Part shown: positions 8,856-13,937 of the stretch, piece after piece
How the letters are laid out: every line of letters begins with the position of its first letter
How positions within the stretch are numbered: the stretch's first letter is position 1
IMG/VR virus record: IMGVR_UViG_3300037258_000279
Span: 29,665 to 93,664 of that record
DNA: 64,000 nt
Source: a virus
Reading direction: 5' to 3' (one strand)
Notes under the pieces: generated by a model
Databases searched by the model: none
The model's input: the letters and a program-made list of their open reading frames with translations, nothing else
Told to the model about the DNA's origin: nothing
Program-made: the position numbers and the translations under genes

Positions 8856-8930
8856 TGGAGCCGGCGGAGGGAATCGAACCCGTCGTTGGGACGTTACGAA
8901 TGTCCTGTCCTGCCACTGAACGACGCCGGC
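8856..8930 (-). tRNA. tRNA-Thr(CGT)
   Basis: cloverleaf, loop TT-CGT-AA, encoded CCA. Confidence 0.85.
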
Positions 8931-8935
8931 GATGG

Positions 8936-9009
8936 TGGTGGGCCTGCTCGGAATTGAACCGAGATCAACGCCTTAAAAGGGCGCAGCTTGACCTTCCAGC
9001 TACAGACCC
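8936..9009 (-). tRNA. tRNA-Lys(TTT)
   Basis: loop CT-TTT-AA, CCA. Confidence 0.85.
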
Positions 9010-9013
9010 GAAT

Positions 9014-9090
9014 TGGTGCGTCGCCTCGGATTCGAACCGAGACTTGCCGGGATTTGAAGCCGGTGCTTCTGCCAATTGAGCGAGCGACGC
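9014..9090 (-). tRNA. tRNA-Leu(CAA), short variable arm
   Basis: CCGGC-TTCAAAT-CCCGG with C31.C39 mismatch, A73, CCA. Confidence 0.7.
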
Positions 9091-9094
9091 GAAA

Positions 9095-9169
9095 TGGTGG
9101 TCCCGCAAGGAATCGAACCTTGATCCCGAGATTCGGATTCTCGGATGCTATCCGTTGCACTACGGAACC
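9095..9169 (-). tRNA. tRNA-Arg(CCG)
   Basis: loop AT-CCG-AA, CCA. Confidence 0.85.
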
Positions 9170-9246
9170 GGCACCGGTGACAGGAGTCGAACCTGCATCG
9201 TCCAGTTATGCACCGACCGCTTAGAAGGCGAGGCCAATACACCGGC
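9170..9246 (-). tRNA. atypical tRNA-Arg(TCT)-like gene, no D arm, long variable arm
   Basis: acceptor GCCGGTG/CACCGGT, T arm GCAGG-TTCGACT-CCTGT, CGC-CTTCTAA-GCG; ends GCC with no full CCA. Confidence 0.6.
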
Positions 9247-9254
9247 AAAAAGTC

Positions 9255-9331
9255 TGGCGCACCCGGAGGGATTCGAACCCCCAACCTCTCGATCCGTAGT
9301 CGAGCGCTCGGTCCAGTCGAGCTGCGGGTGC
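9255..9331 (-). tRNA. tRNA-Arg(ACG)
   Basis: loop CT-ACG-GA, CCA. Confidence 0.9.
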
Positions 9332-9335
9332 AATC

Positions 9336-9411
9336 TGGCGCCTCGTAGCGGATTCGAACCGCTGTCTCCGGAGTGAAGGTCCGGCCACCTAGCCGCTAGT
9401 AAGAACGAGGC
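9336..9411 (-). tRNA. tRNA-Glu(TTC)
   Basis: loop CC-TTC-AC (C33), CCA. Confidence 0.8.
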
Positions 9412-9415
9412 AATC

Positions 9416-9490
9416 TGGTAGGCGCGGGCGGGGTTGAACCGCCGACCTCCTGCGTGTCGAGCAAGCGATCTACCGCTGATCTACGCGCCC
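9416..9490 (-). tRNA. tRNA-Val(GAC)
   Basis: loop TC-GAC-AC (C33), CCA. Confidence 0.85.
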
Positions 9491-9494
9491 AAGC

Positions 9495-9569
9495 TGGTAC
9501 CCCGCGACGGGATCGAACCGCCGACATCCTCGGTGTAAACGAAGCGCTCTACCTCTGAGCTAGCGGGGC
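9495..9569 (-). tRNA. tRNA-Val(TAC)
   Basis: loop TT-TAC-AC, CCA. Confidence 0.9.
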
Positions 9570-9574
9570 ATGTT

Positions 9575-9651
9575 TGGTCGGAGTGAGTGGATTCGAACCA
9601 CCGGCCCCAGCGTCCCGAACGCTGTGCTCTGCCATGCTGAGCTACACTCCG
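9575..9651 (-). tRNA. tRNA-Pro(CGG)
   Basis: loop TT-CGG-GA, C1-G72, CCA. Confidence 0.9.
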
Positions 9652-9656
9652 TCATC

Positions 9657-9732
9657 TGGCGCTCTTGGTGAGGCTCGAACTCACAACCCCCGAACTAGGA
9701 TTTCGGTGCTCGTCCGATCGAGCTGCAAGAGC
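9657..9732 (-). tRNA. tRNA-Arg(CCT)
   Basis: loop AT-CCT-AG, CCA. Confidence 0.85.
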
Positions 9733-9736
9733 AAAT

Positions 9737-9814
9737 TGGTGCGGGCGACAGGATTCGAACCTGCGACTTCCCGGTCCCAAACCGGGCGCTCTGGCCTGAC
9801 TGAGCTACACCCAC
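9737..9814 (-). tRNA. tRNA-Pro(TGG)
   Basis: loop TT-TGG-GA, CCA; G1-C72 instead of the usual C1-G72. Confidence 0.85.
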
Positions 9815-9823
9815 GAACGAAAC

Positions 9824-9897
9824 TGGCGCTTCCAGTCGGGATCGAACCGGCGTTGACGGCGTGACAAGCCGCTCTCCTACCATTGGAGGATGGAAGC
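9824..9897 (-). tRNA. tRNA-Asp(GTC)
   Basis: loop TT-GTC-AC, G73, CCA. Confidence 0.85.
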
Positions 9898-9906
9898 AAA
9901 CGAATT

Positions 9907-9981
9907 TGGTGGGCTGCCAGGGACTCGAACCCTGAACCTACGGATTAAGAGTCCGCTGCGCTACCATTGCGCCAGCAACCC
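9907..9981 (-). tRNA. tRNA-Lys(CTT)
   Basis: loop CT-CTT-AA, CCA. Confidence 0.9.
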
Positions 9982-9984
9982 GAT

Positions 9985-10060
9985 TGGTGGGCCAGTACGG
10001 GGTCGAACCGTCATCGGACGCTTATCAAGCGTCTGCTCGCAGCCGTTGAGCTACAGGCCC
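9985..10060 (-). tRNA. tRNA-Ile(GAT)
   Basis: loop TT-GAT-AA, CCA. Confidence 0.85.
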
Positions 10061-10061
10061 G

Positions 10062-10146
10062 TGGTGGGTCGGCGTGGTGTCGATCCACTCCCCCGCAGGG
10101 ACGGGTTTTACAGACCCGCTGCCGGATCCGCCGGCTTTGCCTTCCC
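10062..10146 (-). tRNA. divergent tRNA-Tyr(GTA)
   Basis: CGGGT-CTGTAAA-ACCCG, long V arm, 5-bp D stem, ATCGACA T loop, CCA. Confidence 0.75.
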
Positions 10147-10152
10147 GTGATC

Positions 10153-10227
10153 TGGTGCCCGGTGACGGATTTGAACCGCCGGCCTCTCCCTTACCGAGGG
10201 ATTGCACTGCCGCTGTGCTAACCGGGC
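10153..10227 (-). tRNA. tRNA-Thr(GGT)
   Basis: loop TC-GGT-AA (C33), CCA. Confidence 0.85.
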
Positions 10228-10232
10228 ATACC

Positions 10233-10324
10233 TGGCGGTGCCGGAGGGATTCGAACCCTCGGGCCGGCTTTCACCGGCCAACGGTTTAGCAAACCGCCGC
10301 CTTCGGCCACTCGGCCACAGCACC
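10233..10324 (-). tRNA. tRNA-Ser(GCT)
   Basis: loop TT-GCT-AA, long V arm, G73. Confidence 0.9.
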
Positions 10325-10328
10325 ATGT

Positions 10329-10418
10329 TGGAGGAACGTGATGGCATCGAACCATCAGCCGCTCGCGCGGCGCCCCGGGTTTCAGAGCCGGTGAAGGAGC
10401 CAACCTTCGGCACGTTCC
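10329..10418 (-). tRNA. divergent tRNA-Ser(TGA)
   Basis: CCGGC-TCTGAAA-CCCGG, long V arm, 5-bp D stem GAAGG/CCTTC, U73. Confidence 0.7.
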
Positions 10419-10421
10419 AAT

Positions 10422-10509
10422 TGGCGGTTGGGGTGAGATTCGAACTCACGGTGCCCGTAGGCACTCCGGGTTTCGGGTCCGGCGCAATCGGCCACTCTGC
10501 CACCCAACC
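10422..10509 (-). tRNA. tRNA-Ser(CGA)
   Basis: loop CC-CGA-AA (C33), long V arm. Confidence 0.8.
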
Positions 10510-10518
10510 AAACGAATC

Positions 10519-10608
10519 TGGCGGACGGTGAAGGATTCGAACCTTCGGTGCCCAGAACGGGCACGCCGCGATTCCAACGCGGTGCAATCGCCACTCTGCC
10601 AACCGTCC
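10519..10608 (-). tRNA. tRNA-Ser(GGA)
   Basis: loop TT-GGA-AT, long V arm. Confidence 0.9.
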
Positions 10609-10612
10609 GAAC

Positions 10613-10696
10613 TGGTGTCCCCGGGGAGAGTCGAACTCCCACGCCGCGAGGCACAGGCACCTCAAGCCTGCGCGTCTACCATTCCGCCACGAGGAC
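10613..10696 (-). tRNA. tRNA-Leu(GAG)
   Basis: loop TT-GAG-GT, long V arm. Confidence 0.9.
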
Positions 10697-10701
10697 AATT
10701 T

Positions 10702-10786
10702 TGGTGCGAGCCGGGAGAGTCGAACTCCCATGTCTTGCGACACTCGGTCCTGAGCCGAGCGCGTCTGCCTATTCCGCCAGGCTCGC
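10702..10786 (-). tRNA. tRNA-Leu(CAG)
   Basis: loop CT-CAG-GA, long V arm. Confidence 0.9.
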
Positions 10787-10792
10787 GTGATC

Positions 10793-10868
10793 TGGTGCGG
10801 GCATCGGGAGTCGAACCCAATGGAAGCCAGGGTTTAGGCCCGGCCGCGTCACCGTGCGCCATGCCCGC
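10793..10868 (-). tRNA. tRNA-Leu(TAA), short variable arm
   Basis: CCGGG-CCTAAAC-CCTGG (C33), A73, CCA. Confidence 0.7.
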
Positions 10869-10872
10869 ATAT

Positions 10873-10948
10873 TGGCGTCCCGCGGGGGAATTGAACCCGC
10901 CGTTTCCCGAGTGAGAGTCGGGGTTCCTGACCGCTAGAAGAGCGGGAC
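10873..10948 (-). tRNA. tRNA-Glu(CTC)
   Basis: loop CT-CTC-AC, CCA. Confidence 0.85.
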
Positions 10949-10953
10949 ATGGT

Positions 10954-11029
10954 TGGCTGCGGCGGAACGGATTCGAACCTTCGACCTGCGCGCTCAAAAC
11001 GCGCTGCTCTACCGCTGAGCTACGCCGCA
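10954..11029 (-). tRNA. tRNA-Gln(TTG)
   Basis: loop TT-TTG-AG, U1-A72, G73. Confidence 0.85.
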
Positions 11030-11035
11030 ACAAAT

Positions 11036-11109
11036 TGGCAGGGCGGCTCGGATTCGAACCGAGGCGAACGGAGTCAGAGTCCGTTATGCTGCCGTTACAT
11101 CACCGCCCA
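11036..11109 (-). tRNA. tRNA-Gln(CTG)
   Basis: loop CT-CTG-AC, CCA. Confidence 0.85.
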
Positions 11110-11116
11110 TCAAAAC

Positions 11117-11191
11117 TGGTGCCGGTAGAGAGGATTGAACTCCCGACCTTCGCATTACAAATGCACTGCTCTGCCGCTGAGCTATACCGGC
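11117..11191 (-). tRNA. tRNA-Thr(TGT)
   Basis: loop TT-TGT-AA, CCA. Confidence 0.9.
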
Positions 11192-11268
11192 TGGGGTGAG
11201 TAGTGGGGATCGAACCCACGAATGATCGGTTCACAGCCGACCGCGTTAGCCACTTCGCCATACCCACC
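11192..11268 (-). tRNA. tRNA-His(GTG) with encoded G-1:C73
   Basis: loop CT-GTG-AA; G-GTGGGTA...TACTCAC-C-CCA. Confidence 0.9.
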
Positions 11269-11271
11269 ACG

Positions 11272-11356
11272 AAAATGCTACCCGGTGGTCTTGCCTTGAA
11301 ACGACGCCCCACGCGTGAGACGGACAGGTATCGAAACCTGCATCACCGGGTTCTTT
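11272..11356 (-). ncRNA. circularly permuted tRNA-like RNA (resembles the YrlA tRNA-mimic domain)
   Basis: terminal stem ACCCGGTG/CACCGGGT enclosing a T-like arm, a loop-closed acceptor-like hairpin and a D-like arm, in that order. Confidence 0.65.
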
Positions 11357-11430
11357 TGGAGGTGCGCCGCGGAGTCGAACCGCGATTGCGGGATTTGCAG
11401 TCCCGAGCCTAGCCGTTCGGCCAGCGCACC
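11357..11430 (-). tRNA. tRNA-Cys(GCA)
   Basis: loop CT-GCA-AA, U73. Confidence 0.9.
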
Positions 11431-11434
11431 AATC

Positions 11435-11510
11435 TGGCACCGGGGGAGGGATTCGAACTCTCGACACGCGGTTTTGGAGACCGCTGCTCTAGCCACTGAG
11501 CTACCCCGGT
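11435..11510 (-). tRNA. tRNA-Trp(CCA)
   Basis: loop CT-CCA-AA, G73. Confidence 0.9.
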
Positions 11511-11513
11511 AGA

Positions 11514-12107
11514 TCAATAAACTCCGTTCCTGCTGTCGGTGCGAAGCCATTTTCTGACGGCCGCTTCTGATACGCCATATCTCGCGGCGACTTTGACTCG
11601 AGATGCCCGCACCACCATTTCCCGAAGCCGCTTTCCTTCGGGTCTGTCCGGGACCTTAGCTTTAGCCTGAGACCGACATCGATTGCTGCAAAACTTTAAG
11701 CCGGCTCGCAAAGGGGCGCCGCACTTTTCGCATGCTGCCCCATCGTCACGCGGGAGGGTCGCAATGTTCCTTCTCGTGACGCGACCATTACGCATAGATA
11801 GCGGGATTGTTGCCTCGTCAAAGCGCCGAATATTGTCTGGGATTCTGGTGCTCCCCTCATGCACCTCGTCGTGGCAGTTGTGACATAGCATCACACATTT
11901 TCTTGCCTCGTCCGCGACCCGCTTCCATGATCGCGGGACACCGTTGGACGCCATGCTAAATTTTTTCTGCGCCGGCTCGACGTGATGGAACGTCAAGGCG
12001 CGCATCGACTTCGCGTAACCGCAAATTCCACAACGGCCGCCGAACGCGACGACGAGCTTTTCTTTCATTCGTTGCCGCCAACGAACGACCGCAGCGCCAC
12101 CGCTCAT
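11514..12107 (-). CDS. HNH (homing-type) endonuclease with zinc ribbon and C-terminal HTH, inside the tRNA array
   Basis: ATG at 12107; GGRCGICGY...LTFHH...KCVMLCHNCHDEVH; CEKC...FCSNRC; VAARYGVSEAAVRKW. Confidence 0.85.
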   Translation of the reverse strand: MSGGAAVVRWRQRMKEKLVVAFGGRCGICGYAKSMRALTFHHVEPAQKKFSMASNGVPRSWKRVADEARKCVMLCHNCHDEVHEGSTRIPDNIRRFDEATIPLSMRNGRVTRRNIATLPRDDGAACEKCGAPLRAGLKFCSNRCRSQAKAKVPDRPEGKRLREMVVRASRVKVAARYGVSEAAVRKWLRTDSRNGVY

Positions 12108-12109
12108 TT

Positions 12110-12184
12110 TGGCTCCCCGAGCTGGACTCGAACCAGCGACCTGCCGCTTAACAGGCGGTTGTTCTACCACTGAACTACCGGGGA
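12110..12184 (-). tRNA. tRNA-Asn(GTT)
   Basis: loop CT-GTT-AA, G73. Confidence 0.9.
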
Positions 12185-12189
12185 AAAAA

Positions 12190-12292
12190 CTGAAAGAGAG
12201 TTGCCGAAGCTCCCACTGCCCGGGCTTTTCCGCGCGGGTTCGCCACACGATTTCTCGCTGGCGTGGCCCCGACGGACGGCTGCCCGTGTCGG
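12190..12292 (-). ncRNA. unassigned structured RNA (four hairpins) in the tRNA array
   Basis: CCGAC/GTCGG, GCCACG/TGTGGC, CCCG/CGGG and GGGAG/CTCTC stems in an array whose other spacers are 0-10 nt. Confidence 0.4.
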
Positions 12293-12293
12293 A

Positions 12294-12368
12294 TGGAGCG
12301 GGCGACGAGAATCGAACTCGCGACATTCTGCTTGGAAGGCAGAAGCTCTACCCCTGAGCTACACCCGC
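12294..12368 (-). tRNA. tRNA-Gly(TCC)
   Basis: loop CT-TCC-AA, U73. Confidence 0.9.
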
Positions 12369-12377
12369 AATCTTGTG

Positions 12378-12441
12378 CTCGCCCCGGTCGGCGCTGTCGT
12401 GAACAGCATGGAGTGACTTGGCCACAACCGACCGGGACGAA
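12378..12441 (-). ncRNA. unassigned three-way-junction RNA
   Basis: ~15-bp stem TTCGTCCCGGTCGGT/GCCGACCGGGGCGAG capped by hairpins GTGGC-CAA-GTCAC and GCTGT-TCACG-ACAGC. Confidence 0.5.
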
Positions 12442-12442
12442 T

Positions 12443-12518
12443 TGGTGCCGAAGAGTGGAATCGAACCACTGACACCCACGCCTTCAACGTAGTGCTCTAC
12501 CTGCTGAGCTACTTCGGC
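12443..12518 (-). tRNA. tRNA-Phe(GAA)
   Basis: loop TT-GAA-GG, CCA. Confidence 0.9.
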
Positions 12519-12521
12519 AAA

Positions 12522-12750
12522 TTTCTCGGGGCTGGATTTGTCATTCCTCCGTTCCTTGCTAGCAGGGGGAGTCGCAGATACCAGCATACAGGATTGCGGC
12601 ACAGCCACCTTTAGGCTGGCGCTACCAGCCGCTGCGTCCTTGGTGTTTGGACGACCCGAGAATCTTCCGGCGACCGGACCAAGTTCTCATGCAGGAGATC
12701 CCGCCAAGGTCCGAACATTTGCATCATTGACGCCTTAGGGGCGTACCGCC
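12522..12750 (-). ncRNA. unassigned multi-branched structured RNA
   Basis: TTCTCGGG/CCCGAGAA closes a ~140-nt domain with CGTCC/GGACG, CAGCC/GGCTG, GCTGG/CCAGC and CTCC/GGAG stems; upstream CGGACC/GGTCCG domain. Confidence 0.45.
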
Positions 12751-12754
12751 GAGT

Positions 12755-12831
12755 TGGTTGCGCTGGCCGGCAATCGAAGCCGGCGACCTTCGGGTTATGG
12801 ACCCGACGAGCTACCTCTGCTCCACAGCGCG
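12755..12831 (-). tRNA. initiator tRNA-fMet(CAT)
   Basis: C1.A72 mismatch, GGG/CCC anticodon stem, loop TC-CAT-AA. Confidence 0.85.
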
Positions 12832-12836
12832 TCAAA

Positions 12837-12912
12837 TGGTGGCAGGGGTGGGAGTCGAACCCGACGACCTGAGCGTTATGAGCGCACCGATCTACCGCTG
12901 ATCTACCCTGCT
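12837..12912 (-). tRNA. tRNA with CAT anticodon (elongator Met or Ile2 not resolved)
   Basis: loop CT-CAT-AA; A1.C72; lacks the three G-C pairs of initiators. Confidence 0.75.
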
Positions 12913-12919
12913 ATCGAAT

Positions 12920-12994
12920 TGGAGCGGGCAATGGGAGTCGAACCCACGACCTCAACCTTGGCAAGGTTGCGCTCTGCCCCTGAGCTATGCCCGC
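12920..12994 (-). tRNA. tRNA-Gly(GCC)
   Basis: loop TT-GCC-AA, U73. Confidence 0.9.
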
Positions 12995-12998
12995 AAAT

Positions 12999-13074
12999 TG
13001 GTGGAGGTAGAGGGACTCGAACCCACGACATCCTGCTTGCAAAACAGGCGCTCTCCCAACTGAGCTATACCCCC
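12999..13074 (-). tRNA. tRNA-Ala(TGC)
   Basis: G3.U70, loop TT-TGC-AA. Confidence 0.9.
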
Positions 13075-13092: not shown

Positions 13093-13245
13093 CTGGCTTT
13101 CAAGGGACCACCGGATCGCCCGGCCGTCTTCCTAGTGGTGTGGCCCGGCGCACGCGGCGCCAGTTGTCCCGATGCAGAGCCGGGGAAGGTCGAACCAGAC
13201 CTTGCTTGCCGGTGGTCTACAACCCCTACGCCTTCGACAAACCAA
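13093..13245 (-). ncRNA. Y RNA-like ncRNA
   Basis: 5' TTGGTTTGTCGAAGG (contains GNCGAAG) pairs with 3' CCTTGAAAGCCAG as a bulged helix; 13-nt asymmetric loop; perfect 9-bp GACCACCGG/CCGGTGGTC stem; branched apical domain. Confidence 0.6.
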
Positions 13246-13309: not shown

Positions 13310-13447
13310 TTATTTCTCGGACGAAGCCTCCCTGCGGGCGGGTTGCCGCTGCGCGCTATTACCCATCGGGTGATGGATAAAGGACGTGCGCGACCACCCG
13401 AATGTTTCGGATAGTTTCGCTCGCAGATTTGAGGCCGTTAAGAGCAT
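13310..13447 (-). CDS. putative attenuator leader peptide, 45 aa (MLLTASNLRAKLSETFGWSRTSFIHHPMGNSAQRQPARREASSEK)
   Basis: ATG at 13447 to TAA at 13310, between promoter and terminator; GGGAGGCT at 13325-13332 is complementary to terminator arm AGCCTCCC at 13274-13281. Confidence 0.65.
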   Translation of the reverse strand: MLLTASNLRAKLSETFGWSRTSFIHHPMGNSAQRQPARREASSEK

Positions 13448-13454
13448 GGCGGGA

Positions 13455-13483
13455 AACCTAGTGTCTACCGACCGACTTGTAAA
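13455..13483 (-). promoter_or_regulatory. sigma70-type promoter of the tRNA island
   Basis: TTTACA-N17-TAGGTT, then 7 nt to the leader ATG, so the transcript would be leaderless. Confidence 0.6.
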
Positions 13484-13511
13484 GGGGGTTTCTCGCGATA
13501 TTTTTTACGAA

Positions 13512-13937
13512 CTATTTCACGTTGGCGAAAAACATGGTGCTGCCTTGTTTCCCCGTCATTGTGGCACCTTGCGTCCATGCCGGCGCCGCGATGGTATCGG
13601 CGTAGAAATTGACGGCACCGCCGGTCGGATCCCCCTCGCCCGCCACCACCGCCGCCAAGACTTCATCGTAGGCTGCGAGCGCGTCGAGGATCACCGGATC
13701 GTCGGGTGCTTTCGCGGCCACGCGTTCGAGATTGGCATTGTCTGCCGAATCCGCGTTCCATTCGCTGAACTGCATGCGCTTCAGACACACCGCCGCTGGC
13801 GTCGAGCCATAGCGCGCCGGATTGATCTGAGCACGATTGAAGATCACCCAGACGATCCAGCGCCGTGCCGTTGGGTCATTCTCTTCGCATGCCGCCGTGA
13901 TGGCGCACACGATGCGATCGGCAAAGCCCGTGTTCAT
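13512..13937 (-). CDS. cell wall hydrolase / endolysin (SleB, Hydrolase_2-like)
   Basis: EE...VIFNR...VCLKRMQFSEWN...DPTGGAVNFY...PAW motifs. Confidence 0.85.
   Translation of the reverse strand: MNTGFADRIVCAITAACEENDPTARRWIVWVIFNRAQINPARYGSTPAAVCLKRMQFSEWNADSADNANLERVAAKAPDDPVILDALAAYDEVLAAVVAGEGDPTGGAVNFYADTIAAPAWTQGATMTGKQGSTMFFANVK

Follow-up and report, generated by a model that had tools for sequence, protein, structure and literature searches.

The minus strand of a phage tRNA array carries an 89-nt spacer between its tRNA-Cys and tRNA-His genes, and the question raised by this locus is whether the spacer encodes a tRNA mimic with a task of its own or merely the residue of rearranged tRNA genes. 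The window that we analysed, a stretch of 64,000 nucleotides, corresponds to bases 29665-93664 of IMG/VR record IMGVR_UViG_3300037258_000279, a complete phage record of 93,664 bp with direct terminal repeats of 127 bp. Its array comprises 35 tRNA genes on the minus strand, most of them separated by 0-9 nt, with about 8 tRNA-sized spacers (Table 1). The original prediction for this locus described the minus-strand letters as a circularly permuted tRNA, and both those letters and the two flanking tRNAs were confirmed. The element is 72 nt long and lies flush between its neighbours, with a closing stem that passes straight into the tRNA flanks. No intrinsic terminators or promoters were found on the minus strand of the array, and a reading of the element as a terminator or promoter was dropped for that reason.

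Two further units of the array were overlooked by standard searches. A rearranged Arg(UCU)-like tRNA gene is missed by both ARAGORN and Rfam; its acceptor, anticodon loop (CUUCUAA) and T arm are intact, a D-loop-like sequence is placed after the anticodon arm, and a canonical tRNA-Arg(UCU) occupies the same place in the related phage G005. The second, probably a tRNA-Ser(UGA), gave no call at default settings, was called by ARAGORN at a relaxed threshold, and scored 37.9 bits with the Rfam tRNA-Sec model. No tRNA-Tyr was found anywhere in the window's array; a candidate in the Y-like region, called by ARAGORN at a 70% threshold, was rejected because its acceptor is mismatched.

Table 1. Coordinates of the element, its neighbours and the related features (window positions unless another sequence is named).
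Feature	Position	Strand	Remarks
tRNA array of the window	8856-13074	-	35 tRNA genes
Homologous array, G005	L050:9022-15968		
Homologous array, L116	L116:6858-12450		
tRNA-Cys(GCA)	11357-11430	-	CCA encoded; upstream neighbour of element
Element	11280-11351	-	72 nt
Closing stem, 5′ strand	11344-11351	-	ACCCGGUG; pairs with 11280-11287, probability about 1.0
Linker AU	11342-11343	-	2 nt, 5′ of T-like arm
T-like arm	11324-11341	-	GCAGG-UUUCGAUA-CCUGU; stem probability about 1.0
Single C	11323	-	between T-like arm and acceptor-like hairpin
Acceptor-like hairpin	11305-11322	-	CGUCUCA/UGGGGCG, 7 bp, loop CGCG; probability 0.82
Linker UC (positions 8-9) and D-like arm	11288-11304	-	GUUU-CAAGGCA-AGAC; from ARAGORN cloverleaf of permuted sequence
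Closing stem, 3′ strand	11280-11287	-	CACCGGGU; directly continuous with D-like stem
3′ tail	11268-11279	-	AGCAUUUUCGUG; runs into G-1 of tRNA-His
tRNA-His(GUG)	11192-11267	-	downstream neighbour of element
Y-like RNA	13093-13245		
Rearranged Arg(UCU)-like gene	9170-9254	-	T arm 9179-9199
tRNA-Ser(UGA), probable	10333-10418	-	
tRNA-Pro(UGG)	9737-9814		
tRNA-His of G005 (His*)	L050:10133-10212	+	
Stem-closed RNAs of G005	L050:13268-13352, 13415-13575	+	just upstream of Ro60-like gene
Ro60-like gene of G005	L050:13604-15241	+	545 aa
Match in Microthrixaceae MAG	L254:5319-5342	-	24 nt
Permuted modules	L104:5986-6052; L133:7915-7990; L134:6379-6459, 12789-12859; L137:2395-2466; L143:11543-11621; L163:4406-4477; L229:2789-2860		

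At minimum energy the element folds into a four-way junction in which a closing stem of 8 bp encloses a T-like hairpin and a second hairpin with the loop CGCG. The architecture originally proposed, a tRNA opened at the anticodon and sealed at the acceptor end, with neither anticodon nor CCA, agrees with this fold and with the ARAGORN cloverleaf, and its individual arms required some revision. The T-like stem stands as described; its loop, UUUCGAUA, has one U extra and is 8 nt long, or 6 nt if closed by a U-A pair, in place of the canonical 7 nt. The acceptor-like hairpin is also present, as 7 bp with the loop CGCG and not as 8 bp with a 2-nt loop, and it includes three G-U pairs, among them a wobble of the G3:U70 type (tRNA numbering). 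In the D-like arm the GG and the placement in the cloverleaf held up, and A21 is present; A14 is missing, with C instead, and the stem is thermodynamically weak (pair probability 0.13; alternative fold 2.6 kcal/mol above the minimum). Geometrically, the 5′ strand of the closing stem stands where a tRNA has the 3′ strand of its anticodon stem, and in sequence it resembles an acceptor strand.

All 24 of the 24 pairs are intact, with zero mismatches. The linkers measure 0 nt between the D-like and closing stems, 1 nt between the T-like and acceptor-like stems, and 2 nt at positions 8-9; these lengths, and the 7 + 5 bp of the minihelix, are what a tRNA in permuted order would have. Elbow nucleotides can be assigned (G18, G19, U54-A58, C56 and G53-C61), as can the tertiary pairs 15-48 (A-U, Levitt-type), 18-55, 19-56, 54-58 and 53-61. 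The 8-14 pair is lost with C14, the variable region is 2 nt long, and position 26 is absent.

Likenesses to other genes of the array indicate that the element is tRNA-derived and built from tRNA parts. Its T stem, GCAGG/CCUGU, is identical to that of tRNA-Pro(UGG), G-U pair included. With the neighbouring GAU and C counted in, the whole arm agrees with that of the Arg(UCU)-like gene at 19 of 21 positions, a score equalled by 1 of 200 shuffles. The acceptor of that Arg(UCU)-like gene, GCCGGUG/CACCGGU, resembles the closing stem, and the closing stem plus tail (ACCCGGU...ACCGGGU-A-GCA) resembles the acceptor of tRNA-Thr(GGU) followed by ACCA. For the D-like arm, the likeness to the 5′ part of tRNA-Thr(CGU), GGCGUCGUUCAGUGGCAGGAC, was not significant (62/200 shuffles equal). 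When R1, a single-sequence covariance model of the element, was run over 1.2 Mb, its best foreign match was the 3′ half of another phage's tRNA-Pro(UGG) together with the next tRNA.

Statistically, the fold exceeds chance only moderately. Its minimum free energy is -30.3 kcal/mol, as compared with -24.9 +/- 3.5 for shuffled sequences (z = -1.53), and 15 of 200 shuffles fold equally well. For a permutation test, the element was cut at the acceptor-like loop, its ends were joined by an anticodon loop, and the product was run in ARAGORN. No tRNA was called at the default setting; at 95% of the threshold the cloverleaf originally drawn was returned. The same test at 95% was passed by 9 of 3000 dinucleotide shuffles and by about 0.4% of 89-nt windows from this genome, giving p values of about 0.003 per spacer and about 0.03 over the roughly 8 tRNA-sized spacers. 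With about 0.3-0.4% of random 89-nt windows passing, roughly 25-30 such loci are predicted in the window, counting both strands.

Family models did not recognize the element. Rfam searches at gathering and permissive thresholds returned neither a YrlA nor a tRNA match, and the YrlA covariance model (RF02553, gathering score 69 bits), run on positions 11262-11362 (101 nt) alone, gave no match even at E <= 10. The matches of this model inside the array, at 19-26 bits, are pairs of adjacent tRNAs (tRNA dimers), an artefact of YrlA searches named by Chen et al. (PMC4201824). No canonical tRNA was called in the element by ARAGORN, at the default or a 70% threshold, or by Rfam (RF00005). A tRNA reading in normal order was rejected, as no arm has a usable anticodon loop and there is no 7-nt loop with U33, and ARAGORN found no tmRNA.

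To place the locus among its relatives, we drew on a search with the major capsid protein, which identified 41 related viral contigs. Of these, G001 is the closest complete one (88% capsid identity), with only one tRNA, and the tRNA order of the window's array is found only in G005 and G007 (69% capsid identity) and in an otherwise different phage, L116. An ordered cassette (Ala, Met, ... Trp, Cys, His, Thr, Gln ... Arg, Leu, Thr) that includes HNH endonuclease genes is common to three phage lineages, and because it lies at different genome positions in the three, it behaves as a mobile module.

At the Cys-His site itself, the G005 array has tRNA-Cys, 6 nt, an odd tRNA-His (His*, GGTGATGC...GCATCACCCCA) and then tRNA-Thr, with no extra unit. 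This tRNA-His gene, which ARAGORN and Rfam both miss, has the non-canonical T loop UGCAACC, and several more units of the G005 array look like degenerate tRNAs. In L116 the interval is 395 nt long and holds a unit, GGTGATGC...GTAGCAT, whose fold is a three-way junction. At its start the element has the same 8-mer, GGTGATGC, and GTAGCAT follows the element; the tail GUAGCAU is thus common to the element and the L116 unit, and GCAU to the element and His*. These shared edges point to a shared history of the site, probably involving a duplicated tRNA-His. The interior of the element showed no significant similarity to His* (514/1000 shuffles score equally) or to the L116 unit, and descent of the interior from either was rejected on these grounds.

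Such edges raise the possibility that a duplicated tRNA-His gene decayed here and that its remnant happens to read as a permuted cloverleaf without adopting a tRNA-like 3D fold. His* stands exactly at this position in G005, with the 8-mer at its start and GCAT shared with the element; the L116 interval combines the same edges with a different interior; random 89-nt windows pass the permuted test at the frequency given above; and the D-like arm has a low pair probability. A chance fold accords less well with a T arm near-identical to real T arms of the array, flanking bases included, with linkers of 0, 1 and 2 nt that fit tRNA-like coaxial stacking, with a 7 + 5 bp minihelix of tRNA length, or with an interior that resembles His* no better than half of its shuffled versions do. 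We regard this explanation as rather unlikely.

The permuted cloverleaf is specific to this phage and is absent from the homologous arrays that we found. No exact 23-mer of the element occurs in viral contigs, blastn against GenBank phages returned only noise, a search with the neighbouring hydrolase gene yielded one relative, without tRNAs, the HNH gene in the array has homologues at 48-61% and no close relative in viral contigs, and a tRNA-Cys pattern scan revealed zero further homologous arrays. A 20-mer search of genome contigs gave two matches, both outside any tRNA context. In a Microthrixaceae MAG, 24 nt are identical to the 5′ part of the element, GGTGATGCAGGTTTCGATACCTGT; no tRNA genes lie close by, nothing else of the element accompanies the stretch, and the match is probably due to chance. 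The array of Ruegeria phage RpAliso was considered as a homologue and rejected because it is not syntenic. These searches turned up no ortholog that folds alike, and so no covariation to indicate that the structure is selected.

Permuted modules of the same general design do occur in other phages. We applied ARAGORN to permuted constructs, at the default threshold, for the spacers of 72 other array-bearing loci, and obtained clear acceptor-closed modules with canonical T and D loops in L104, L109, L133, L134, L137, L143, L163, L229 and others, with two modules each in L134 and L137. The class of acceptor-closed permuted modules in phage arrays is real. Several of the clear modules are preceded by a GAATGCC-like motif on the outer stem, and their host phages are unrelated. 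TROVE or DUF2828 was detected in 4 of the 7 module-bearing records that could be searched, as against 0 of 7 array records that have no module; the association involves small numbers, and three of the negative records are fragments.

The array of G005 itself encodes a TROVE+vWA (Ro60-like) protein, whose gene sits between tRNA(CUA) and tRNA-Arg(ACG). At the counterpart of this site in the window (9331-9336) there is no gap and no Ro60-like gene, and six-frame searches of the complete genome for TROVE, DUF2828 and homologs of the G005 protein found none of them. On reading the sequence of the element and its flanks we found no GNCGAAN0-1G Ro-binding motif, as had been noted at the outset, and no CAGCAA after the 5′ strand of the closing stem, where AUGCAGG stands.

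A separate Y-like RNA has been proposed at 13093-13245 of the window, and comparison with G005 bears on it. Two stem-closed RNAs precede the Ro60-like gene of that phage. One of them encloses a complete tRNA with the anticodon CUA in a 10-bp outer stem, and it gives a weak full-length match (15.8 bits) to the Deinococcus Y RNA model. The window's Y-like RNA (13160-13240, minus strand) aligns to the other through TCGAxGGxGTAGG, GGTT and GTCTGGTTCGA, and this alignment supports the assignment of the putative Y-like RNA. The original prediction went on to suggest that the element is its trans-acting partner. Near-identical stems of the two RNAs would then pair to form a bipartite YrlA, with the Ro handle on one RNA and the tRNA-like domain on the other. 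The 10-mer AGACCACCGG and its complement CCGGUG are indeed present in both stems, and the Y-like RNA has an ortholog beside a Ro60-like gene. Yet the 10-mer is not significant, its score being equalled by 31 of 200 shuffles, and 6 intermolecular bp would have to compete with 8-9 intramolecular bp in each stem. The expected co-occurrence also fails, as the homologous G005 array has a Y-like RNA and Ro60 and no such element, and the present genome has no Ro60 gene. We consider pairing in trans to be extremely improbable.

A role as an elbow decoy for tRNA-targeting toxins, sensors or nucleases had likewise been put forward, and nothing in our results speaks for it. The fold is absent from the homologous arrays and is not matched by the YrlA model. 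Lacking both an anticodon loop and a CCA end, the element cannot serve as a decoy substrate for either anticodon nucleases or toxins that act on the acceptor end. A functional stand-alone mimic would have to be an anticodon-less, CCA-less L-shaped RNA that occupies proteins or enzymes binding the elbow or the acceptor-T minihelix, and candidate targets include RNase P, TruB, the CCA-adding enzyme, host tRNA-sensing defence proteins and the host Rsr complex. By analogy with M. smegmatis YrlA, RNase P may cut the element in its CGCG loop. Such a mimic would account for four helices that are perfectly paired despite divergence from every tRNA of the array, for elbow nucleotides and an A15-U48 Levitt-type pair that can still be assigned, for an acceptor-like stem of 7 bp, and for the recurrence of the class in phage arrays. 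The 24 intact pairs are unlike long neutral decay and may reflect a recent origin or continuing selection; it is this intact pairing that keeps a functional reading alive. On the other hand, the element is lineage-specific, being absent at the syntenic G005/G007 site and not conserved in its interior in L116; its T loop, A14 and variable region are degenerate; no covariance model matches it; and the statistics are weak. A stand-alone function is, in our judgement, unlikely.

It is also conceivable, and in our view very improbable, that the element works as a Ro-independent two-piece tRNA mimic that is cut by RNase P, supplied with CCA and charged by alanyl-tRNA synthetase. Like M. smegmatis YrlA, the element would be cleaved in its sealed loop, between the G and the U of CGCG/U; after 3′ trimming and CCA addition, the product would be an anticodon-less split tRNA that, given its G3:U70 pair, alanyl-tRNA synthetase could charge. 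Were this true, a tRNA-shaped molecule would engage translation or defence factors without decoding.

We propose instead, with about even confidence, that the element is an orphan, probably decaying, tRNA-derived mimic module that is passively released from the array transcript. Rearrangement of tRNA parts inside a fast-changing phage array would have produced the module, which would be transcribed along with the array and set free by 3′ maturation of tRNA-Cys and an RNase P cut at G-1 of tRNA-His. The released RNA is predicted in silico to fold into a YrlA-type four-way junction composed of the closing stem, the T arm, the sealed 7-bp hairpin and the D arm. The element would belong to the phage class of acceptor-closed permuted mimics, which are usually accompanied by a Ro60-like protein. 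As the genome has no Ro60-like gene and the element no Ro-binding handle, little or no present function is most likely; at most, the element could bind tRNA-elbow-recognising host factors or host Rsr. Signs of decay relative to the clear modules include the 8-nt T loop, C14, the 2-nt variable region, the sub-threshold ARAGORN score and the failure of covariance models to match. As a copy of a known design, the tRNA-like half of bacterial Y RNAs such as YrlA, the element is weak and confined to its lineage, and nothing points to a conserved role.

What the locus teaches depends on which reading is correct. If the element is functional, a tRNA-mimic domain can work without the Ro-binding half of a Y RNA, and it would offer a simple way towards identifying what the YrlA tRNA-like domain binds as its partner. 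A relic, the reading that we hold to be more likely, would provide a snapshot of the shuffling of tRNA parts in phage arrays, in which Ro60/Y-RNA modules are gained and lost together with the array. The contrast among relatives illustrates this: G005 has an array with a Ro60-like gene, the present phage has the RNAs only, and its nearest relative has almost no tRNAs. Either way, a single instance adds little beyond the known YrlA-type RNAs.

Comparison with YrlA itself (Rfam RF02553; Chen et al. 2014, PMC4201824; structure preprint 10.1101/312249) defines both the likeness and its limits. The published order of the YrlA tRNA-like domain is T, AS, D (PMC4201824), and the YrlA-like topology originally claimed for the element agrees with this order and with the Rfam consensus, the layouts being stem-2-T-1-AS-2-D-0-stem for the element and stem-4-T-0-AS-2-D-0-stem for the consensus. 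Both share the same helix order, a 2-nt linker before the D arm, and the lack of an anticodon and of a free CCA. The acceptor-like stem is 7 bp long, as in M. smegmatis YrlA, which is cleaved by RNase P in its acceptor-like loop (PMC4201824), and mycobacteriophage YrlA RNAs likewise reside in phage tRNA regions. YrlA is recognised by a Ro-binding stem with the GNCGAAN0-1G motif near the 5′ end and by a Ro60/TROVE gene within about 4 kb on the same strand; the element has no such stem or motif, and its genome no such gene. The T and D loops of YrlA are nearly invariant and those of the element deviate in part; the element, at only 72 nt, draws no match from the YrlA covariance model.

Other systems with permuted or dismembered tRNAs offer further points of reference. 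In the permuted tRNA genes of Cyanidioschyzon merolae and the two-piece tmRNA genes of alpha-proteobacteria, the 3′ half precedes the 5′ half and the acceptor strands are joined by a short intervening loop, as they are in the element. Those genes mature into functional tRNA or tmRNA with CCA and an anticodon loop or tag frame, whereas the element has neither anticodon loop sequence nor reading frame. Like the element, tRNA fragments and pseudogenes contain recognisable tRNA pieces and are lineage-specific, and a relative has a tRNA-His at the element's site; ordinary fragments, however, keep the normal order and form no closed four-way junction, and the element differs in both respects. The permuted modules of other phages have 7-nt T loops, a 5-nt variable region and position 26, and pass ARAGORN at default, none of which is true of the element, and many of them have longer stems or "handles" and lie near a TROVE or DUF2828 gene, neither of which the element has. 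What the element shares with these modules is their topology, their setting in tRNA arrays and a D arm, GUUU-CAAGGCA-AGAC, that is close to the GUUU-AGUGGCA-AAAC of L104.
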